Shown one piece after another: positions 4,801 through 40,214 of a DNA stretch of 64,000 bases (position 1 is its first letter; the number at the start of each line of letters is the position of its first letter). The notes under the pieces are model-generated. The model made no database searches, was not told the DNA's origin, and worked only from the letters and a program-made list of their open reading frames with translations. The position numbers and the translations under genes were made by a program. This DNA comes from an uncultured Christensenellaceae bacterium. Lineage in GTDB: Bacteria > Bacillota > Clostridia > Christensenellales > UBA3700. The stretch covers positions 17,287 through 81,286 of the forward strand of contig CALWRH010000004.1 in assembly GCA_944383895.1 (NCBI GenBank). The letters are read 5' to 3'.

Positions 4801-5426
4801 TGAAGGCTCTTATAGTTGGCGCGGCAGACGATTTCTGCGCGGACATGCTTATAAAAAACGACGGAGATCTGCTTATAGCGGCTGACGGCGGTTATGCAAA
4901 GATCGCGGACAAAACGATTATCGATCTCGTAGTCGGAGATTTCGATTCTCTCGGCTATTGTCCAGACGCGAAAAAAGTGATCAGACTAAAGCCCGAAAAA
5001 GACGAAACGGACACGGATTGCGCGGCGGAATACGCTGCGGAACACGGCGCGGACGAGATCGTGTTTTATGCTTGTCTGGGCGGCAGACCCGATCATGCAC
5101 TTGCAAATCTGCAGCTCGGTACGAGGCTTGCAAAGCGCGGTAAAAAAGTCAGGTTCGAGAGCACGGGCTATACAGTATACTTTATTAAAGACGGCTGTTT
5201 GCGTTTGCCTGCGAAGAGTAGAGGACGGATTTCTGTTTTCAGCCCCGACGTTACGCGCGGAGTCACTATAAAAGGATTGAAATACGAAATAACGGATAAA
5301 ATGCTGACAAACGTGTTTGCGCTCGGCGTGAGCAACGAGTTTGTCGGCAAAGACGCGGAGATATCCGCAAAAGACGGAGTACTGATAATATTTGTTTATG
5401 AAGAAGATAATAATATTCGATCTTGA
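4800..5426 (+). CDS. Thiamine pyrophosphokinase
   Basis: 208 aa. VVGDFDSLG, KDETDTD and GGRPDHALANL motifs. ATG overlaps the upstream TAA (TAATG). Confidence 0.8.
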   Translation: MKALIVGAADDFCADMLIKNDGDLLIAADGGYAKIADKTIIDLVVGDFDSLGYCPDAKKVIRLKPEKDETDTDCAAEYAAEHGADEIVFYACLGGRPDHALANLQLGTRLAKRGKKVRFESTGYTVYFIKDGCLRLPAKSRGRISVFSPDVTRGVTIKGLKYEITDKMLTNVFALGVSNEFVGKDAEISAKDGVLIIFVYEEDNNIRS

Positions 5427-6045
5427 CGGGACGCTGCTCAATTCGCTCAAAGACCTTTGGGCGGCGGTGAACGGCGCGCTCTGGAGCGTGGGATTGCCTT
5501 GCCGCAGCGAAGAAGAAGTAAGACAGTTCGTCGGCGACGGAGTGGATATGCTGATAAGACGCGCGATAGGTGACGAACAGAATAAATTCGACGATTGCAA
5601 GGCAGCGTTCAAGAAACTCTATGACAAGGACATGCAGAACCAGACGAGGCCTTACGACGGGGTAAACAAGATGCTTGCCGATCTGAAGGCAAAAGGACTT
5701 GAGATCGCGGTATTGTCCAATAAATACGACAGCGCGGTGAAAGCGCTCTGCGATTATTATTTCAAAGATAAGATAAGTTATGCCGTAGGTCAAAAGGACG
5801 GCGTTAAGGTCAAGCCCGATCCCGCTGCGCTGAAAGAACTGCTTGAAAACGCCGGATATACTTCTGACGAGGCATTGTATTGCGGAGACGGAGAGGCGGA
5901 CGTACTTTGCGCGAAAGCGGCGGGGGTGGATTTTATCGCTGCGGCATGGGGGTTCAGACACTACAGCGTGCTTGAAAAGGCAGGCGCGAAAGTATTTGCG
6001 GGCATGCCTGCCGACGTCGCTGCGATAGTCGATACGTTTATGTGA
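5398..6045 (+). CDS. HAD-superfamily hydrolase (phosphoglycolate phosphatase-like)
   Basis: Motif I IIFDLDGTLLNS and motif IV GDGEADV. I prefer the ATG at 5398 (MKKIIIFDLDG) over the track's TTG at 5392. Confidence 0.8.
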   Translation: MKKIIIFDLDGTLLNSLKDLWAAVNGALWSVGLPCRSEEEVRQFVGDGVDMLIRRAIGDEQNKFDDCKAAFKKLYDKDMQNQTRPYDGVNKMLADLKAKGLEIAVLSNKYDSAVKALCDYYFKDKISYAVGQKDGVKVKPDPAALKELLENAGYTSDEALYCGDGEADVLCAKAAGVDFIAAAWGFRHYSVLEKAGAKVFAGMPADVAAIVDTFM

Positions 6046-6086
6046 AAAAGCCGCTCAAGGCGGTGAGATATAAGAGGAGAATTGTT

Positions 6087-8591
6087 ATGAAAAAAGCGAA
6101 ATACGGCAGCGGATTCAAGCTGTTCGACTACTACAAGACTGTAGCTCGCGTCGGCGGAGTTTTTTCCGCTTTATCGCTTTCTGCGATGATCTATGTTATC
6201 TATTACATGTTCTACAACTACATGTACGGAGAACTCAAAGAAGAGCTTACGACTAATTCGGCTCTCAAATATTCTTTGATAGCCGTCGGCATAGTACTTG
6301 CTATAATGGTCGTGGTGTTCGTTGCGTTGAAGATAGCGTCAAAAAGGACGAGCGCGCTCGACGTCGCTCTTATAGTCGTCGGAATCGCGGATATCGTGAT
6401 CATGGTCAAGAAGTTCTCGATCGACGCGAATATAAGAAACGCACAGGAAGTGCTCGTGTATGCGATACCGCTTGCATGCACTGTTATCGTGAGTATAGTC
6501 AGATGGATAGTTTTCTCTCCGAGAAACAACAAACTCATATCCACTCACGGAGAAAAGAGCAACAGCAATTTCAAAGATTATTACATATCCCTGTTCAAGA
6601 AACCTTCGACCTGGTTTATGATCGTCATGGCGCTCGTGATCGCGCTCATGTTTGTACTCGCGCAGGCTGAAGGCTGGCTCAACGTTTTCGATCTCAACGA
6701 ATATTCCAAAACCGAGATGATAAGAAACTGCGCCGTCATGGGCGGTATCGCAGGAGTTCTGTTTATCATCGGACTTGTTATAAGACTGTACAACAAGACG
6801 ATGAACTTTATGGACGCGTATTCCTTCGCGCTCGTTCCCGCAGGCATCGTAATGATCATAAGTTATATAATCGTGCAGCATACGGCTACGCTTATACTCG
6901 CGCTCGGTGCGATAGTGATTTCCTCAGCGTTGCAGATATTGTACGCTAAGACTTCTTATCTCACGGACAGCATAGTATGCGACGAAGAAGAAAAATTTGT
7001 AGAAGAACCCGAGAGCGAAAGCAAGGCTGAAGAACCTTGCTGCGTGGCTGAAGAAAGCAAAGGCGAGGTGTTCGGCGCAGTTGCGGCCGTCACCGAAGAA
7101 CACGAAGATTACGGCGCGACGCTCGAGGCCGTGCAGAAGACTCTCGACAGAATTTACAGACAGAACGAAGAACTCGAGGAAAGGCTGGCAAAAGCCGAAG
7201 TGGCGATAAGATCGCTCGAAGACAAAAACGCACAACTCGAAAAAGAAGTATCGGGACTGAGATCGTCCAACCGTTTCGTTTTGCTCGATATAGAAAAGCT
7301 CATGTCGAGGCTGTCTTATCTCGAAACCAAGACAGGCAAACCTCAGCCTGCGGTAGTCGTAAAAACCGATGCGGGCGAGAACGCGTTCGTGATGAGAGCG
7401 ATAGAGAATATCCTTTCCAGACTTACTTACGCAGAAAGCCTTGTCAGAGGAACTGACGAAGCTGTCGAGTATAGCACGGAGCCTTGCGAGGCAGCGGACG
7501 ATTATCCGTTTATAATGCTTACGCTTGAGAAACTGCTTTCGAGGCTGACCTATGCGGAAAGTCTGCTTGCAAAGGGCGTAACCGTTATTGAACAAGAGGA
7601 GGAGATCGGGGAGCAGCCTGAAGAAGAGGTTGCAGAAGAATCCGAAGAGCCCGAGGAGCAGCCCGAAGAAGTCTTGGAAGACGAAGAAACGGAAGAAGAC
7701 GAGGACGAAGAAAGTCAGGATGAAGAAAGCGCAGAACCTGCAGAAGAGGGCGAAATAACGTGGGAAGAGGTCGCGTCCAATAAACGCCGCGCTAAACCCA
7801 GATTCACCTTTGATATGAAACTGCGTATCGCAAGCGACGACGTGAAGAAGTTCTACAGCGATATCAAGAACGCTTTACTGTCTTACGGCATGCACGCAAG
7901 GATGTCGCGCCATAAAGAAAACTTCAACAAGGGAAGAAACAATATCGCGCGTATGGCGATAAACGGCAAGACGCTCAAAGTATATCTCGCGATAGATCCT
8001 AATGAGATCGATCCCAAGTATTATCACCACCGCGACGTCAGCGACAAGAAAGGTGTGGCGGAACTGCCCACGATGATCAACGTGCGCTCTAAAGTCGCTG
8101 TCAAAAAGGTAAAGATGCTTATCGACAGGATCGCGGAAGAGCTCGTTATCTTCCCCAAGAAATACACTCCGAAGGATTTTGCAGAAGATCTGACTCTTGA
8201 CGGATATTCTACGGTAGAGCGCAAAGGATACGGCTATCTCGTAAATAAAGACGGAGTGGCAAAGAAAGAAGACGTTGACGCTATCCCTGACGATTTTGCG
8301 ACAAATGCGGTCGAATATATATACGCACCGCAGAAGGCAAGCCGTTTCATAAAAGCGGAGCTGTCGCTGAAAGAGCTTGAAAGCAATTTCAAGGACGGCG
8401 ACGTCGTTGACATAGAAAAGGTCAGAGATAAAGGACTCTGCGCGGTAAACGCAAATTATCTGTCGGTTACTGACAGCAATACGCTCAAAAAGAAATTCCG
8501 CGTCTATGCAGACGAATACACCGTTGCAGCGGCAAAGATGATCTGCGTAGCGGGCGGAGAAGCTTATATGATTATTCAACCCGAAGCATAA
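6087..8591 (+). CDS. Polytopic membrane protein with coiled coil, triple SRL(S/T)Y motif, poly-acidic linker and uL15-like C-terminal domain
   Basis: ATG at 6087 is preceded by an AGGAG SD (the track start at 6042 is GTG). About 8-9 hydrophobic helices, then EE/heptad-rich segments. The last 79 aa align by eye to the ribosomal protein uL15 C-terminus. Confidence 0.85.
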   Translation: MKKAKYGSGFKLFDYYKTVARVGGVFSALSLSAMIYVIYYMFYNYMYGELKEELTTNSALKYSLIAVGIVLAIMVVVFVALKIASKRTSALDVALIVVGIADIVIMVKKFSIDANIRNAQEVLVYAIPLACTVIVSIVRWIVFSPRNNKLISTHGEKSNSNFKDYYISLFKKPSTWFMIVMALVIALMFVLAQAEGWLNVFDLNEYSKTEMIRNCAVMGGIAGVLFIIGLVIRLYNKTMNFMDAYSFALVPAGIVMIISYIIVQHTATLILALGAIVISSALQILYAKTSYLTDSIVCDEEEKFVEEPESESKAEEPCCVAEESKGEVFGAVAAVTEEHEDYGATLEAVQKTLDRIYRQNEELEERLAKAEVAIRSLEDKNAQLEKEVSGLRSSNRFVLLDIEKLMSRLSYLETKTGKPQPAVVVKTDAGENAFVMRAIENILSRLTYAESLVRGTDEAVEYSTEPCEAADDYPFIMLTLEKLLSRLTYAESLLAKGVTVIEQEEEIGEQPEEEVAEESEEPEEQPEEVLEDEETEEDEDEESQDEESAEPAEEGEITWEEVASNKRRAKPRFTFDMKLRIASDDVKKFYSDIKNALLSYGMHARMSRHKENFNKGRNNIARMAINGKTLKVYLAIDPNEIDPKYYHHRDVSDKKGVAELPTMINVRSKVAVKKVKMLIDRIAEELVIFPKKYTPKDFAEDLTLDGYSTVERKGYGYLVNKDGVAKKEDVDAIPDDFATNAVEYIYAPQKASRFIKAELSLKELESNFKDGDVVDIEKVRDKGLCAVNANYLSVTDSNTLKKKFRVYADEYTVAAAKMICVAGGEAYMIIQPEA

Positions 8592-16944: not shown

Positions 16945-17772
16945 TCAGAGAACTCTGCGGCCTTCTATGAAATAAGACCAACGTTTTGAAGATATCTGCT
17001 CGATAACGGCGTGATCGCTCGCCGTATGCAGGATATAGTTGTCGCCGAGGTATATCGCGACGTGTCCCACTCTTTCAGTGCCGGTAAGGTTGTAACGGGA
17101 AGAATTGGTGAAGAACATGAGGTCGCCTCTTTTCAGATTATCGCGCGTTACGCGCACGCCCTGCAGAACCTGTGTTCTCGTCGTTACGTCGAGGAGAACG
17201 CCTGCTCCTTTATAATAAGCGTATTGGGTAAGCGCCGAGCAGTCGAATTCTCCCGCAACGAAATTGGTGTTGAGGATCCCGTTGCCCCAGTGGTAACGCT
17301 GACTGCCCCAGACGTAAGGATATCCGAGCAGAGATTTGCCTACTGTGATTACGCTTTCTACTTTTTCGTCGCCTTTGTCCATACGGTACAGCGTAGAGTA
17401 TGAGCTGTTTGCGGAAACGTAGGCAACGCGTTCTTTATAAACTGTTTTATACCATCCGTCTTCGAGTGCGATAAACGCGACCATGTCTCCTTTGTCGAGA
17501 GTGCCGAGAGAAGAATAGGACGTGCCTTTTCCGCTCCGCACGTTAAGTCCGTTGGTCAGGGAAACAACGAGAGTGTCCTGATCCGAAACGGAAGGGGATT
17601 GATTGTCGCCGCCCTGGTTTTGTCCGACGTAGTTTGCATATATCAACGCGTCGATTTTGTCCGCGATAGAAAAAGCGAATACTTTATTGTAGTCAGACTG
17701 CCCGCAAGATACAAGCGCGAACGCCGAAACGGCTATTACGGCGATAGCGACGATAATTGTTACGGTCTTCAT
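16945..17772 (-). CDS. NlpC/P60 (C40) cell-wall peptidase with SH3 domain, lipoprotein
   Basis: Signal peptide plus lipobox LVSCG. SH3-like LNVRSGKGTSYSSLGTLDKGDMV. Catalytic FDCSALTQYAY and GHVAIYLG. Confidence 0.85.
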   Translation of the reverse strand: MKTVTIIVAIAVIAVSAFALVSCGQSDYNKVFAFSIADKIDALIYANYVGQNQGGDNQSPSVSDQDTLVVSLTNGLNVRSGKGTSYSSLGTLDKGDMVAFIALEDGWYKTVYKERVAYVSANSSYSTLYRMDKGDEKVESVITVGKSLLGYPYVWGSQRYHWGNGILNTNFVAGEFDCSALTQYAYYKGAGVLLDVTTRTQVLQGVRVTRDNLKRGDLMFFTNSSRYNLTGTERVGHVAIYLGDNYILHTASDHAVIEQISSKRWSYFIEGRRVL

Positions 17773-35789: not shown

Positions 35790-37112
35790 TTATTCCATAG
35801 CCTCTTTAATAGCCGCGGCAAGCGACAGGCTGTCCGTCGTATCGTAATGCGGGCATACGGAGAGAAGTCCCGCTATGCCGTAGTCGTAACAGAACGCCGC
35901 CATATCCCTGACAAACAGATATCCGTTGAATCTTATTTCGGTGTCGCCTTCTTTGACGACGTTGCCGTATTTTCCGAGTTGTTCTGCATAGTCGCAATAC
36001 TTATACAGGGTTTCCGTTTCTTTGTCGTAGCTGTAGAAAGGAACGGTGAGGTGTGTTTTGGATTTAGGCAGATCGCTGTCCTTTACCGTTTCGAGAGTTT
36101 CGCATACCGTTTCCGAAAAAGCAGACTTGTTATTGTCGTCGAGATTGGGGGTAAGGACATAGAAGTTGTCGATGTAATTTTTGGACTGCTTATCGAAAAA
36201 TCTTGCGTCGGGGTTGATAAAAATACCTATTTCGTACGGCGACATAACCTTGCCGCGAAGTGTATCGATAAAGTCGTTGTAAGAGCCGTAATCGAAGAAG
36301 TTGATGCCGCTGTCGAAACCGAATACGACGCCGTCAAAGTCAGAACCCTTGAGAAGTTCCGAAACGTTGGTCGCAAGAGTTTCTGCATTGTTCTTGAACG
36401 CATTGTGACGCACGTCGTTTTCGTCTTGACCATCTGACGGTTCAGGCAAAATGACGATATGGATATTTGCATCCTGATTGAAAGAGCGGATCTTTCTGGT
36501 AACGTCGATGAGTTCGAACTTGCCTACGTTGAGATTGCCGCTTGAATCGAAGGTCGCAAGCGGATATATTATATAATCGGTATAGTTTTTCAGAAGAGTG
36601 GTGTCCACGCCGTCGAAAGGATTGCCGTTTTCGTTGAGTCTGACAAAAGCGGTGGAGTGGAAGTTACGGTTTCTCGAAAGGTTGTAAATGCCGATATTCG
36701 TCAGCTTATACGTGCCTTTGCAAGATGTGATTTTTACCGTTACGGAAGTGGCGGTGGTAGAACCGAGATATACGTTTCTCATTTTGCCGATGTTGTCCTG
36801 AGAATATACCAGCTCGTCGTTGACGTATATTTCAAAACCCGTAACGTTGGTGCCGTTTTCGTAGAGGAATATTTCGTTGAATTCTACTGCGCTGTCCCAC
36901 GAGATCCTGACCCATGCCTCGCCGGATGCTTTCAGAGAGAAGTTTATCTTTCTGTCGCCGTTGCTGTATGTGAACTTTGCATAATCGGCGAGGTTGGTAG
37001 CGTTGATTTCAAAAAGGTTTTTAATATCGCTGCAACCTGCGAGTACGCTGCACAGTAAAGCGAGCGTAAAAACAATAACTATTACAGATACGATCAACGA
37101 CTTCTTTTTCAT
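35790..37112 (-). CDS. Lipoprotein with discoidin/CBM32-like N-domain and a GH18-like domain with a degenerate catalytic motif
   Basis: Signal peptide plus lipobox LAGCSD. An N-terminal beta-sandwich-like segment of about 120 aa. FDGVVFGFDSG aligns to the GH18 motif DGxDxDxE but lacks the acidic residues. Confidence 0.8.
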   Translation of the reverse strand: MKKKSLIVSVIVIVFTLALLCSVLAGCSDIKNLFEINATNLADYAKFTYSNGDRKINFSLKASGEAWVRISWDSAVEFNEIFLYENGTNVTGFEIYVNDELVYSQDNIGKMRNVYLGSTTATSVTVKITSCKGTYKLTNIGIYNLSRNRNFHSTAFVRLNENGNPFDGVDTTLLKNYTDYIIYPLATFDSSGNLNVGKFELIDVTRKIRSFNQDANIHIVILPEPSDGQDENDVRHNAFKNNAETLATNVSELLKGSDFDGVVFGFDSGINFFDYGSYNDFIDTLRGKVMSPYEIGIFINPDARFFDKQSKNYIDNFYVLTPNLDDNNKSAFSETVCETLETVKDSDLPKSKTHLTVPFYSYDKETETLYKYCDYAEQLGKYGNVVKEGDTEIRFNGYLFVRDMAAFCYDYGIAGLLSVCPHYDTTDSLSLAAAIKEAME

Positions 37113-37245
37113 AGTAATTTTATTATATCATATTATCCGTCAAAACGCATAAAAAATTTATAAAAATCGAAATTAGCAAGTTTTTACGCATTTGTTATGA
37201 CTGTTTACAGGTTTCTGCGGCTGAAATAATTGCGTATCGCAGAGT

Positions 37246-37269
37246 AAAGGCGGCGTAAAAAACGCCGCC
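37246..37269 (-). terminator. Intrinsic terminator of rubrerythrin
   Basis: GGCGGCG-N7-CGCCGCC (37249-37269), with TTTAC following on the minus strand. Confidence 0.6.
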
Positions 37270-37317
37270 CGATTGTGAGGGGGATTTATGTGCATAACGC
37301 ACACGGGTATGAAAAAA

Positions 37318-37914
37318 TCAGTTGTTGTCGTTGAGCTTGAGCATGACTGCACCCTGTTTTGCCTGACAGAGAGGGCATACCTTCCATGCCTCTTTCGAGG
37401 TAGCCTCGTAGCCGCAGTCGGCGCACTTCCATTTTACAGCCTTGGGACGGCAATAGAGTTTGCCTTGAGAGAGCTGATTGTAAAGATCTGTAAACAGCTT
37501 GTTGTGGCATGTTTCAACCTGTACAACGTTGTCGAAAAGTCCCGCGATATCCTTGAAACCTTCTTTTCTTGCGGTTTCGGCAAAAGCGGGATAAATTCTC
37601 GTTGCCTCTTCGTTTTCGTCATCCGCCGCGAACTTGAGATTGTCGACAAGGTTCCACTTTTCCTTGAACGGATATTCCGCGCATATCTCCACAGAATCGA
37701 TTGCAGCGTTTTTATCTGCCGTCTGTATAAAAGAGTAGAACATGCGCGAGTGATGAAATTCCTGAGTGGATACCTGTTTGATCATTTTCGCAAGTTCGGT
37801 ATATCCTTCCTGTTTCGCGCCGTAAGCCATATACTCGTAGCGCGCCTTTGCCATACACTCTCCCGCAAAAGCGCGGGCGAGATTCTTAAAAGTTTCACTG
37901 TCTTTGAGTTGCAT
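37318..37914 (-). CDS. rbr: Rubrerythrin
   Basis: 198 aa. Ferritin-like di-iron N-domain plus a C-terminal rubredoxin-like CADCGYE...CPLCQ. GGAGG SD. Confidence 0.9.
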   Translation of the reverse strand: MQLKDSETFKNLARAFAGECMAKARYEYMAYGAKQEGYTELAKMIKQVSTQEFHHSRMFYSFIQTADKNAAIDSVEICAEYPFKEKWNLVDNLKFAADDENEEATRIYPAFAETARKEGFKDIAGLFDNVVQVETCHNKLFTDLYNQLSQGKLYCRPKAVKWKCADCGYEATSKEAWKVCPLCQAKQGAVMLKLNDNN

Positions 37915-38062
37915 AATTACCTCCGTCGAGCTAAGTATTGACGGATTTTTTTGCGATATTCATTTGCTTTTATAAAATGACGTTAGCGTGCCGTCGTTGA
38001 AAACACTAAATTAATTGTTCGGCATTTTATAAGGTATAAGTATTGTAGAGATAATTTGAAAT

Positions 38063-38091
38063 GATTTTTACCAAAAATATTGGTAAAAATC
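38063..38091. promoter_or_regulatory. Perfect 10-bp inverted repeat upstream of rubrerythrin (candidate operator)
   Basis: GATTTTTACC-N9-GGTAAAAATC, about 150 bp upstream of the rbr start codon. Confidence 0.4.
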
Positions 38092-38170
38092 AATTGCAGA
38101 TAAATGCTATTTTTTTTGGGCAAGAATAGGAACAAAGAAAAATAAACGTTGCAATATGTTTATAAATGTA

Positions 38171-38336
38171 GTACTTTCACAAAAACCACGTTTTTGTGAA
38201 AAGTACAATATGAGTCCGTCAGCCGTAGGGTAGGACAAGGCTTGGAGGGGATAAAGTAAGGGGAAACACAAATCACCGCGTATATGAAAAGGGCTGTCCT
38301 TGCGGACAGCCGTTTGATTTAGCGTAGTGATTTTGG
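38171..38336 (+). repeat. Structured non-coding unit A (candidate sRNA or miniature hairpin-ended element)
   Basis: 5' AT-rich hairpin (TTCACAAAAA-CCACG-TTTTTGTGAA, 38176-38200). G-rich core GGAGGGG..AAGGGG. GC hairpin GGCTGTCC-TTGC-GGACAGCC (38292-38311) followed by GTTTGATTT. Enclosing pairing 38270-38279 / 38322-38333. Confidence 0.55.
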
Positions 38337-38377
38337 CGTATTTTGTTAAAAGTTTGATGTAATAGCAAGTTGTATTT

Positions 38378-38543
38378 TCTTTTTACAAAAACCACGCTTT
38401 TTGTAAAAAGTACAATGAGAGTCCGTTAGCCGCAGGGTAGGACGAGGCTTGGAGGGGATAAAGTAAGGGGAAACACAAATCACCGCGTATATGAAAAGGG
38501 CTGTCCTTGCGGACAGTCCTTTGATTTAGCGTAGTGATTTTGG
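38378..38543 (+). repeat. Structured non-coding unit B (second copy, offset about 207 bp)
   Basis: Same architecture as unit A. A 71-nt core is identical. The 5' hairpin carries a compensatory C-G to T-A change. The GC hairpin (38499-38518) doubles as the terminator for the convergent UPF0210 operon. Confidence 0.55.
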
Positions 38544-38564
38544 TGCCCCTTGCTAAGCGAAGCG

Positions 38565-39914
38565 TCAGTTTTTATTACTATGCAACGGCGCGGGAATTCT
38601 TCCTCCGCGATTGACGAACTTGGAAGGATCGCTGCGGTTTATGCTCATGATAGGTGCCTCGCCGAGCAGTCCGCCGAAAGTCGCTGTTTCGCCTTCTTTC
38701 TTGCCGTATACGGGTATTACTCTGACAGCAGTCGTCTTGGTGTTGACTACGCCGATAGCGATTTCGTCGGCGATCAGAGCGGATATGATCTCGGGAGAAA
38801 CGTCGCCCGGGATAGCTATCATGTCAAGGCCGACAGAACATACCGCCGTCATTGCCTCGAGTTTTTCGATCGAGAGCAGTCCGCTTTCCGCCGCCTTTAT
38901 CATGCCTGCGTCTTCGGATACGGGGATAAACGCGCCCGAAAGTCCGCCGACGTGGTTGCTTGCCATAATGCCGCCTTTCTTTACCGCGTCGTTGAGCAGG
39001 GCGAGCGTTGCGGTAGTGCCGCAAGCGCCTACGCTTTCAAGACCTATCTCTTCGAGGATATGCGCGACGCTGTCGCCGACTACGGGGGTAGGAGCGAGCG
39101 AGAGGTCGACTATGCCGTAGCTTACTCCGAGTCTGTTTGCCGCCTCGCGTGCAACGAGCTGACCTACGCGGGTTATCTTGAACGCAGTCTGCTTTATGAC
39201 TTCCGCTACCTGAGTGAGGTCGCCGTCAACCTGTTCGAGCGCGACTTTGACTACGCCGGGTCCGGATACGCCGACGTTGACTACCGCGTCGTCCTCGCCG
39301 CTGCCGAGGAACGCGCCTGCCATGAACGGGTTGTCCTCTACCGCGTTCGCGAAAACGACGAGTTTAGCGCATGCTAAGCTGTCCTGATCGCGGGTGAGGT
39401 ATGCGCAGTCCTTGACTATCTTGCCCATGAGTTTGACTGCGTCCATGTTTATGCCCGCTTTTGACGTAGCGACGTTGACCGAAGAGCATATCTTCTTGGT
39501 CGTGGACAAAGCCTCGGGGATGCTGAGCAAAAACTCCTTTTCGTAAGGGGTCATCGCCTTGTGCACGAGTGCGGAATAGCCTCCGAGGAAGTCTATGCCG
39601 ATTTCGTCTGCTACTTTATCGAGAGTCCTGATGATCTCGAGATGTCCTTTGCTTGCCGCCGCGACAAGACTGACGGGAGTTACCGCGATACGCTTGTTTA
39701 CGATCGGTACGCCTATTTCGCCCGATATATCGTTGCCTATTCTGACGAGGTTGCCCGCCTTTTTCATAAGCTTGTCGTATATCTTGTCGCAGGTGCGCTT
39801 GGGACTGTCCGTAATGCAGTCGAACAGCGAAACGCCGAGCGTTATCGTTCTGACGTCGAGGTGCTGATGCGACACCATGTTTATGGTTTCTAAGATTTCG
39901 CTTGTAGAGTACAT
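38565..39914 (-). CDS. UPF0210 family protein (PFL-like, DUF711)
   Basis: 449 aa. The N-terminus [30 protein letters not shown] matches my recollection of the UPF0210 family. It is paired with an ACT protein, as is usual. Confidence 0.8.
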
Positions 39915-39926
39915 ATTGTAAATTCC

Positions 39927-40214
39927 TCAGTTGGATTTTGACAGCGAAACGTTGTGCATGCTGTCGAATATGCTTTTGAGTTGTATCTGGATCTGTACGC
40001 CGATTTTTTCGCCGAGCGCGTTGAGATTTGACTTGATGACGTCGAAACGGGGAGCGTTTTCACAGATCTCTACCGCCATGATCATCGTGAAGTATTCCTG
40101 CAGAATAGTCTGAGAAATGTCTTCGATATTAACGTCCATGTCGTAGAGGGCGTTGGATACTTTGGCGATAATGCCTTTTTTGTCCTTTCCGATAACGGAA
40201 ACGATTGCTTTCAT
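39927..40214 (-). CDS. ACT domain protein (UPF0237 type)
   Basis: 95 aa. MKAIVSVIGKDKKGIIAKVS... ACT fold signature. Immediately upstream of the UPF0210 gene. Confidence 0.8.
   Translation of the reverse strand: MKAIVSVIGKDKKGIIAKVSNALYDMDVNIEDISQTILQEYFTMIMAVEICENAPRFDVIKSNLNALGEKIGVQIQIQLKSIFDSMHNVSLSKSN

Follow-up and report, generated by a model that had tools for sequence, protein, structure and literature searches.

Two tandem units between the rubrerythrin and DUF711 genes

We analysed a repeated intergenic element in a 64,000-nucleotide stretch of DNA from an uncultured Christensenellaceae bacterium (positions 17,287 to 81,286 of contig CALWRH010000004.1, assembly GCA_944383895.1), which is referred to as the window. 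The gap between the rubrerythrin gene and the DUF711/UPF0210 operon is 650 bp long and is filled by two direct copies of one unit, A at 38171–38336 and B at 38378–38543. A repeat search, blastn and MAFFT agree on the direct orientation of the copies and on their spacing of 206–207 nt. The repeat search detected a 159-nt family at a spacing of 207 and a 28-nt family at a spacing of 206, and blastn aligned the units with 94% identity over 159 nt (E = 8e-65). The tandem pair described by the first-pass annotation of this sequence is therefore present at those positions. The core common to A and B is identical over approximately 72 nt, from AGGCTTGG through GGACAG. No third copy of the unit was found in the 64-kb window by blastn, and a covariance model of the distal part of the unit, the tail, gives exactly two matches there. 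The element ends at 38564, immediately next to the DUF711 stop codon (TCA at 38565–38567, minus strand). The features of the region are the following:

37318–37914, minus strand: rubrerythrin gene, divergent from the array (Pfam PF02915); its promoter region lies between 37915 and approximately 38160
38171–38206, plus strand: H1 of unit A, AT-rich hairpin GTACTTTCACAAAAAC-CAC-GTTTTTGTGAAAAGTAC; an inverted repeat whose helix is kept in all homologues
38214–38236, plus strand: H2 of unit A, type a, a GTCC...GGAC stem around GCC/GGT (RNAalifold of 15 type-a units)
38244–38267, plus strand: G-box of unit A, GGAGGGGATAAAGTAAGGGGAAAC, the family's best-conserved stretch; its 5' half is predicted to be unpaired and its 3' half lies in P1
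38268–38334, plus strand: tail of unit A, terminator-like on both strands and covarying (covariance-model match 38244–38352, 109.7 bits); it consists of the P2 5' strand (38268–38281), loop ATATGA, P3 (38288–38315, the GC hairpin with A/T extensions), loop GATTTA and the P2 3' strand (38322–38334)
38335–38352, plus strand: decayed P1 3' strand of unit A (GGCGTATTTTGTTAAAAG), with four C-to-T differences from copy B in the alignment that leave G.U pairs
38379–38410, plus strand: H1 of unit B, CTTTTTACAAAAA-CCACGC-TTTTTGTAAAAAG; an inverted repeat of 13 bp, 100% complementary
38421–38443, plus strand: H2 of unit B, type a (alignment, fold and RNAalifold)
38451–38474, plus strand: G-box of unit B, the exact second copy in the window
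38475–38541, plus strand: tail of unit B with P2, the invariant loop ATATGA/GATTTA and P3 at 38495–38522, which has one plus-strand G.U (covariance model and minimum-free-energy fold)
38546–38564, plus strand: P1 3' strand CCCCTTGC (38546–38553) with covarying P1 pairs, then TAAGCGAAGCG up to the DUF711 stop codon
38565–39914, minus strand: DUF711/UPF0210 gene, convergent with the array (Pfam PF05167, E = 2.6e-183)

All of the structural features proposed in the first-pass annotation were recovered. Hairpin H1 differs between the copies by a true C-G to T-A double change, from TTCACAAAAA/TTTTTGTGAA in A to TTTACAAAAA/TTTTTGTAAA in B. The G-rich stretch GGAGGGGATAAAGTAAGGGG occurs exactly twice in the window, compared to zero expected by chance. 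The GC hairpin GGCTGTCC-TTGC-GGACAGCC followed by GTTTGATTT was scored as terminator-like on both strands, and the C-to-T change in the GC stem of copy B is present and gives a G.U pair on the plus strand. The enclosing pairing AAATCACCGC/GCG-TA-GTGATTT is real and covaries among homologues. No open reading frame is conserved, as had been stated: the mini-frame within the terminator is wholly different between stem variants, and its ATG is lost in some copies. Long minus-strand open reading frames through the arrays were considered as coding sequences and rejected as artefacts; the unit periods of 95–105 nt are not multiples of three. A third, outermost helix was absent from the annotation. 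This helix, P1, pairs GTAAGGGG of the G-box with CCCCTTGC at 38546–38553. It is intact in copy B only; decay in copy A has left G.U pairs (GTATTTTGT), and the decayed strand is also seen in alignment row L001-3926. The folding energy of the array region is below that of shuffled sequences on both strands, with −76.1 kcal/mol for the plus strand (z = −5.6) and −59.3 kcal/mol for the minus strand (z = −5.1).

A lineage-restricted family of head and tail modules

The element is not a private duplication of this genome. A scan with the G-box pattern GGAGGGGATNNAGTAAGGGG, using one genome per species, returned 19 stretches, of which 13 contain the same element and six are chance matches. The carriers are at least eight species of uncultured Christensenellaceae/Christensenella, represented by metagenome-assembled genomes (MAGs) and including Candidatus Ornithoclostridium faecavium. 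Pattern matches indicate two to three loci per genome, and many of the matches are in tandem. The tail covariance model (R1) scored the window copies at 125.5 and 109.7 bits and found up to five tails at other loci. The tandem pair of the first-pass annotation is thus one locus of a family with multiple loci in multiple species. The rubrerythrin locus was present in ten metagenome contigs encoding an identical rubrerythrin, three of which contain one unit, six two units (one of them with an N-gap inside the array) and one three units. Among these units there are three unrelated versions of the GC stem, accompanied by matching versions of the enclosing helix. The unit counts are uncertain because metagenome assemblies break or gap inside the arrays: contigs L022 and L026 (loci and contigs compared here carry the prefix L) end inside an array, and L004 contains a run of N inside its array. 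L022 (5715–5863, PFOR followed by the array) and L026 (1–560, the array followed by UDG) come from a single MAG. Since PFOR and UDG lie side by side in L044, the array broke the L022/L026 assembly.

Searches of reference collections returned no described relative. Rfam 15 gave no match for the whole window at gathering thresholds, in line with the first-pass annotation, which recognised no known RNA family, and a search of positions 37000–40000 at E ≤ 10 gave chance matches only (mir-513 at 20 bits against a gathering threshold of 72, and eukaryotic lncRNA models). The unit had no blastn match in phage and plasmid collections, the G-box scan found nothing in viral contigs, and in JGI metagenome contigs it returned two chance matches only. 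No paper was found on the element or on small or structured RNAs of Christensenella. Related species lack the element downstream of DUF711 genes whose proteins are 79–87% identical and downstream of three PFOR orthologues. The DUF711 genes are followed there by SpoU, a plain terminator or other repeats, and TM2 was also seen among the sequences that replace the element at the DUF711 and PFOR orthologues. The family is therefore confined to a subclade in which loci were gained or lost. The element represents a previously undescribed, lineage-restricted family of modular structured elements.

When the loci are read on the G-rich strand, which is the plus strand of the window, two separable modules are seen. 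The head is approximately 100–105 nt long and comprises a T-rich linker, the AT hairpin H1, hairpin H2 and the G-box. H2 occurs in two unrelated forms: form a, GAGwCCG...AGGGTrAGGwC, is that of the window, and form b is CAAAAAGTT-GAGTCGGGGCGA-AACTTTTTG. The G-box has the consensus GGAnGGGATAnnRTAAGGGGAAAC, with purines at 21 of 24 positions. The tail is approximately 95 nt long and comprises the P2 5' strand, (A)TATGA, a variable P3, GATTnA, the P2 3' strand, TTTTGG and CCCCTTRC. The last motif forms P1 with GTAAGGGG of the preceding G-box and is often followed by TAAGCGAAGCG. The order in the arrays is one to four heads followed by one tail. Locus L027 has four heads and one tail, and the window has the simplest arrangement, head-tail head-tail. 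The unit of the first-pass annotation is therefore a structured, non-coding repeat, as claimed, although it really consists of a head module and a tail module. Tails without P3 occur inside arrays (L019 and L026) and in L029, and L018 has a tail with a short AT-rich P3. The minimum-free-energy fold of a four-head array was too ambiguous for use.

Modules are also truncated or fused, as in L019-3981 and at half-H1 junctions in L024 and L026. The right arm of H1 is kept even where the left arm is lost, and H1 half-sites vary within one genome. The first tails of L005 and L007 (rows L005-3927 and L007-3926) are chimeric, with the P2 5' strand of one variant and the 3' strand of another, which breaks P2; either recombination between tandem copies or misassembly may have produced them. 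The P2 variant tracks the locus and not the genome: the PFOR loci of two MAGs have TCCC/GGGA, and the variant seen at DUF711 is TCAC/GTGA. Therefore, the loci are probably old paralogues and not products of recent transposition.

Helices, strand asymmetry and the tail as a putative terminator

RNAalifold was applied to alignments of 29 distinct tails, 15 form-a heads and 13 form-b heads. Each of the helices H1, H2a, H2b, P1, P2 and P3 contains double compensatory changes. H1 shows double changes from CAC/GTG to CGG/CCG. In H2a, pair 53/74 is A-U in eight units and U-A in seven, and pair 60/69 is an invariant G.U, which exists on the plus strand only. P1 covaries at pairs 12/108 (A-U in 23, C-G in five) and 20/100 (G-C in 21, A-U in four). 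In the tail, 95.1% of the pairing cells are paired, compared to 85.5% in shuffles, and the covariation score is 0.319, compared to 0.152 in shuffles and 0.03–0.08 when the partners are slid by one to three columns; neither tail value was reached by any of 500 shuffles, a control made on related sequences and hence indicative and not a probability. The compensatory changes in all helices, and the tail values above those of shuffled controls, agree with the structured element envisaged by the first-pass annotation.

The plus strand is the structured strand, as the annotation had suggested from one base change. Cells with G.U outnumber those with A.C by 99 to 3 in the tail, 18 to 1 in head a and 30 to 4 in head b, counted on the plus-strand consensus, which itself favours G.U. 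When each strand was folded independently, the consensus energies for the plus and minus strands were −14.0 and −4.3, −18.9 and −10.6, and −26.0 and −21.3 kcal/mol. On the minus strand, 80.5% of the tail cells remain paired, compared to 95.1% on the plus strand, and the covariance-model score of the copy B tail falls from 125.5 bits on the plus strand to 22.8 bits on the minus. Invariant G.U pairs are present once in H2a, once in H2b and twice in P2, and each of the four C-to-T changes in the P1 3' strand of copy A converts G-C to G.U. P3 is an exception, with the wobble on the minus strand in three of the four wobble-bearing variants; the commonest P3 stem has, on the minus strand, a GCAA tetraloop of the GNRA type followed by CTTTTCAT. 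H1 has no strand bias.

The stems vary, but several unpaired motifs are invariant: GGAnGGGAUA, which is the G-box 5' half, the loop AUAUGA/GAUUNA, and TTTTGG. In the minimum-free-energy fold of copy B, GGAnGGGAUA is unpaired; the alignment folds cover only the 3' half of the box, which is part of P1. By inspection, the symmetric loop AUAUGA/GAUUNA can be drawn as A.G, G.A, U.U and A-U pairs.

The position of the tail is consistent with a role in termination. In copy A, P3 was scored as a terminator-like site in both directions; in copy B, it was scored on the minus strand, at 38516–38501. Judged from sequence, it has a GC stem-loop and a T tract and lies at the end of a transcription unit, as expected of an intrinsic terminator. 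The plus-strand T tract after P3 is interrupted (TTTGATT), and inspection shows a T-rich run beyond each of the three tail helices in both directions. In ten of eleven loci, the tail model ends no more than approximately 30 nt from the stop codon of a convergent gene, or overlaps that codon. In seven species the convergent gene is DUF711, named "PFL family protein" at NCBI; two species have PFOR in this position, and one has a gene for a GGGtGRT protein. The stems, T tracts and stop-codon positions point to P3 as a putative bidirectional intrinsic terminator. Since the tail ends at 38564 and the stop codon occupies 38565–38567, P3 on the minus strand is probably the terminator of DUF711. The first-pass annotation had taken the GC hairpin for a plus-strand terminator; it is terminator-like in that direction, and the description was incomplete in omitting its likely service to the DUF711 operon. 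The eleventh locus, L029, has its tails inside an approximately 470-bp tandem duplication (5072–6000) upstream of a co-directional OmpR-type response-regulator gene and a probable kinase gene. Both tails lack P3, and the regulator gene has its own promoter-like sequence. No plus-strand gene was found upstream of the arrays.

Arrays at the DUF711 locus invariably have a divergent rubrerythrin gene on their other side, and the same arrangement is seen in L014, L018, L024 and L027. Loci outside DUF711 lack rubrerythrin. Just upstream of the rubrerythrin start codon, a hairpin TCCGTCGAGCTAAGTATTGACGGA is present at 37922–37945. In the rubrerythrin mRNA (minus strand), UCCGUC of this hairpin pairs with GACGGA of the Shine-Dalgarno sequence GACGGAGG, and L014, L018 and L024 have the same hairpin ahead of their rubrerythrin genes. 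The hairpin may have a role in translational control or in stabilizing the 5' end. The rubrerythrin promoter region contains an inverted repeat AAATGATTTTTACCAA/TTGGTAAAAATCAATT at 38059–38095 (16 nt, 94% complementary) and a 13-nt inverted pair with arms 37 nt apart at 37970–38032. Both are candidate operator sites and lie outside the repeated element.

Other repeats occur in the vicinity of the arrays or at corresponding positions in related genomes. A small hairpin repeat, TTTAGGTC-WWWW-GACCTAAA, is present in either orientation beside arrays in four loci of different genomes (L019 at approximately 1590–1612 and at 2206–2229; L024 at 2801–2820 and approximately 2500; L027 at approximately 2102–2125; L029 at approximately 5790 and 5320) and is absent from the window. 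Downstream of PFOR in the Christensenellaceae contig L047 (6440–7100), there are tandem hairpin repeats with three copies of TGTCCACTTTTGTGGACAC, three of CAAGGCGGTTAAGGGGTGGAGCG and five of CTTGTCAAGT..ACTTGACA. L042, from a relative lacking the element, has a 720-bp gap beyond its SpoU methylase gene (5330–6090) in which a different segment of approximately 110 nt is duplicated, GACAGTACCGACAAA.GGTTTTATT.GCTTG.CGAATATACACCGTTTCGTTTG. The Christensenellaceae lineage seems to be rich in intergenic repeat arrays.

A candidate decoy RNA and competing explanations

Based on the modular order, the covariation and the strand asymmetry, a plus-strand RNA can be proposed. The element is probably a family of structured RNAs encoded on the plus strand. 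The RNAs would be stand-alone small RNAs (sRNAs), because heads precede the tail, H2, P1 and P2 have a wobble bias, unpaired motifs are conserved, tails without P3 occur only within continuing arrays or in L029, which has no convergent gene, and a plus-strand gene is absent upstream. Transcription would initiate inside the intergenic region. P3 would stop the transcript of the array and, on the other strand, that of the convergent protein-coding operon, so that the tail would act as a reinforced bidirectional terminator insulating the RNA gene from the operon. Each head would present GGAnGGGAUA in single-stranded form between H2 and P1. The exposed and repeated G-rich boxes are possibly decoy sites of the RosA/RsaI or CsrB type, in which case the number of heads would set the decoy capacity; the loop AUAUGA/GAUUNA is a second candidate recognition site. 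We propose multi-site decoys because G-rich or GGA-containing single strands are working parts of RosA and of CsrB/Rsm RNAs. Taken alone, the decoy step rests on this analogy and is doubtful. The plus-strand RNA together with its decoy function is our best explanation overall, and it could equally well prove right or wrong. Of the two hypotheses in the first-pass annotation, tandem sRNA genes in antisense orientation to their neighbours fit best, in view of the structure, the G.U asymmetry and the array-then-terminator order.

The RNAs CsrB/CsrC and RsmX/Y/Z have repeated GGA sites as working parts, variable numbers of units, several paralogues per genome that are sometimes tandem, and a Rho-independent terminator at the 3' end. 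The element similarly has repeated GGA, invariant in each G-box, variable units, paralogues and a terminator-like hairpin at its 3' end. It differs in that no Rfam Csr/Rsm model matches it and in that its GGA lies in a linear purine tract instead of hairpin loops. To our knowledge, CsrA is not known from Christensenellaceae. RosA of B. subtilis has three single-stranded G-rich regions and is a sponge for the C-rich sRNAs RoxS and FsrA, which control central metabolism, and RsaI of S. aureus binds its C-rich partner sRNAs through similar G-rich regions (PMC8216469). Both are stand-alone Bacillota sRNAs with two or three single-stranded G-rich regions between helices; in the element, G-rich boxes are likewise predicted between helices, beside redox and pyruvate genes. 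However, the element has no sequence or structure homology to them, comes from Clostridia and not Bacilli, and consists of repeated 100-nt modules with a dedicated three-helix tail at several paralogous loci. Bidirectional intrinsic terminators between convergent genes share with P3 the GC hairpin between an A tract and a T tract at the junction of transcription units, but in the element P3 is enclosed by two more conserved helices and an invariant internal loop, which a terminator does not need. By analogy, the element may act most like G-rich or GGA decoy sRNAs, and membership in those families cannot be claimed.

Several observations weigh against the decoy RNA. Scans for sigma-70 promoters upstream of heads in the window, L024 and L019 gave no more candidates than shuffled sequences, and candidates noted by eye (TATAAA at 38161–38166, TACnnT after H1 and TAnnRT in the G-box) were unconvincing, some of them for want of conservation. 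A sigma-54 reading of TGGTGCCCCTTGC was rejected by inspection because its spacing is wrong. Because the P3 T tract precedes the 3' strands of P2 and P1, these strands would be missing from an RNA that ended at P3, and the RNA model has to invoke either read-through or trimming back to P1. A C-rich partner RNA was sought in the 64-kb window without success, the Rfam scan of the window gave no match to RsaE, and tblastn found no CsrA, Hfq or FliW in the window and the homologous loci, which are a small part of any genome. The lack of strand bias in H1 could mean that this hairpin is a DNA palindrome, and a G.U (G.T) bias is expected equally from a structure of single-stranded DNA. Related species lack the element at the same genes. 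Truncated and chimeric modules, differing copy numbers among assemblies and other tandem hairpin repeats nearby fit selfish or neutral dynamics, and the occurrence of such repeats in related genomes raises the prior for a parasitic mosaic.

BOX elements and BIMEs occur in about a hundred or more dispersed copies and are judged to be parasitic. Like BOX of S. pneumoniae (boxA-boxB(n)-boxC), a modular mosaic that is transcribed only inside a transcription unit (PMC3049150), and the BIMEs of E. coli, the element is a lineage-restricted modular intergenic mosaic (n = 1–4) with extensive hairpins. It could thus be a selfish or neutral hairpin mosaic spread and reshuffled by recombination and tolerated at the 3' ends of genes, whose sole "function" would be incidental termination or protection of mRNA 3' ends. 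The separable modules with variable internal number, as in BOX (PMC3049150), the truncated, fused and chimeric modules (L019-3981, L024, L026, L005 and L007), one, two or three units across assemblies of one species, the constant position of the array next to a gene 3' end, the absence of the element from the same genes in related species, the other tandem hairpin repeats in related genomes and the failure to detect a promoter all speak for this account. The low copy number, with two to three loci per genome by pattern and a single locus in the 64-kb window, does not fit it: in contrast to high-copy dispersed repeats, the pattern-match census places the element at few loci, which are shared across species and carry locus-specific helix variants, indicating old paralogues. 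Terminal inverted repeats, a target-site duplication and a nearby transposase are all absent, as is the element itself from phages, plasmids and viral contigs. Conservation is higher in unpaired motifs than in stems, and the structure always lies on the strand antisense to the neighbouring gene and hence is not that of the 3' untranslated region of this gene. We regard the mosaic as credible but unlikely. The second hypothesis of the first-pass annotation, a derivative of PATE or IS200-IS605 elements, is not supported by the same observations: the inverted repeats, duplications and transposase are missing, the copy number in the pattern scan is low and the helix variant follows the locus. The element resembles IS200/IS605 PATEs and REP/RAYT in being hairpin-rich, intergenic and strand-asymmetric, and differs from them in having no nearby transposase or RAYT, hairpins at both ends, high copy number or insertion signature. 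PATE and REP-RAYT were also rejected because the two ends are unrelated (T-rich linker and H1 compared to CCCCTTGCTAAGCGAAGCG) and the flanking genes encode no transposase domain.

The remaining explanations assign a regulatory role other than that of a plus-strand decoy. The array may act in cis as an antisense or insulator device, with plus-strand read-through past the tail entering convergent pyruvate-metabolism genes and the heads sensing a signal that sets its amount. The S-box-controlled antisense RNA of the ubiG operon in Clostridium acetobutylicum is reportedly a riboswitch-controlled system to which such a device can be likened. The tail lies against a convergent gene in ten of eleven loci, the partners are PFOR, DUF711 ("PFL family protein") and GGGtGRT, the interrupted tract TTTGATT suggests a weak plus-strand terminator, and the conserved P1 and P2 3' strands past P3 imply a read-through RNA. 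However, no anti-terminator pairing competing with P3 was found, conservation resembling a ligand pocket is absent beyond the G-box, the partner genes are of three kinds only, and the tail of L029 has no convergent gene and is followed by the co-directional response regulator, so that we consider this device improbable. A type III toxin-antitoxin array of the ToxI kind was rejected, as the gene after the tail is convergent (DUF711, PFOR or GGGtGRT) and not a toxin on the same strand. Tandem multicopy C-rich sRNAs occur in Bacillota. Bacillota sRNAs with C-rich regions are described (PMC8216469), and the element could likewise be a minus-strand sRNA in which anti-Shine-Dalgarno seeds (CCCCUUACUUUAUCCCCUCC) would repress translation, like RsaE/RoxS, LhrC and csRNAs; the minus strand contains CCCC and CCUCC motifs, and some P3 variants fold better on it. 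Yet on this strand the consensus structure of the tail largely collapses (80.5% paired compared to 95.1%, and −4.3 compared to −14.0), H2, P1 and P2 have A.C mismatches in place of their invariant G.U pairs, and the strong terminator precedes the C-rich motifs; beyond them, even in arrays of up to four heads, H1 leads into an A run and no terminator follows. The minus-strand seeds raised by the first-pass annotation are thus not supported, and we find such an sRNA very improbable. The chances are just as slim that the array is regulatory DNA, with H1 palindromes as operators and the G-box centre TAnnRT as a −10-like element controlling rubrerythrin or local transcription. H1 is a symmetric palindrome without strand bias and keeps its right arm where the left is lost, the G-box centre fits TAnnnT, and the array is divergent from rubrerythrin at one locus; but rubrerythrin is absent at other loci, H2, P1 and P2 show RNA-type covariation and G.U bias, H1 half-sites vary inside one genome, and there is no consistent −35 element.

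If the plus-strand RNA exists, it would be novel as a multicopy structured sRNA that is assembled from head(n)-tail modules and shares its bidirectional terminator with the neighbouring gene. We speculate, at rather low confidence, that the arrays are a new class of multi-site regulatory RNA in Clostridia, with the G-box and the internal loop with its invariant tandem G.A/U.U as recognition sites. Such a class could be the first decoy described outside Bacilli and Proteobacteria that titrates C-rich sRNAs or a global RNA-binding protein, the number of tandem heads determining its capacity, or it could be a signal-sensing device that meters antisense read-through into PFOR, the DUF711 "PFL family" operon and GGGtGRT.

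Among human gut bacteria, the Christensenellaceae are a heritable family associated with health. The element described here is a well-supported structured RNA candidate with covariation, strand bias, conserved unpaired motifs and an unusual head(n)-tail build, and it is absent from Rfam. If it is a selfish repeat, it would be a useful low-copy counter-example, in which a BOX-like mosaic passes for an RNA gene and breaks metagenome assemblies. If it is transcribed, it would provide the first handle on post-transcriptional control near the central anaerobic metabolism of these bacteria (PFOR and rubrerythrin), and a natural case in which the number of repeats could tune a decoy RNA.

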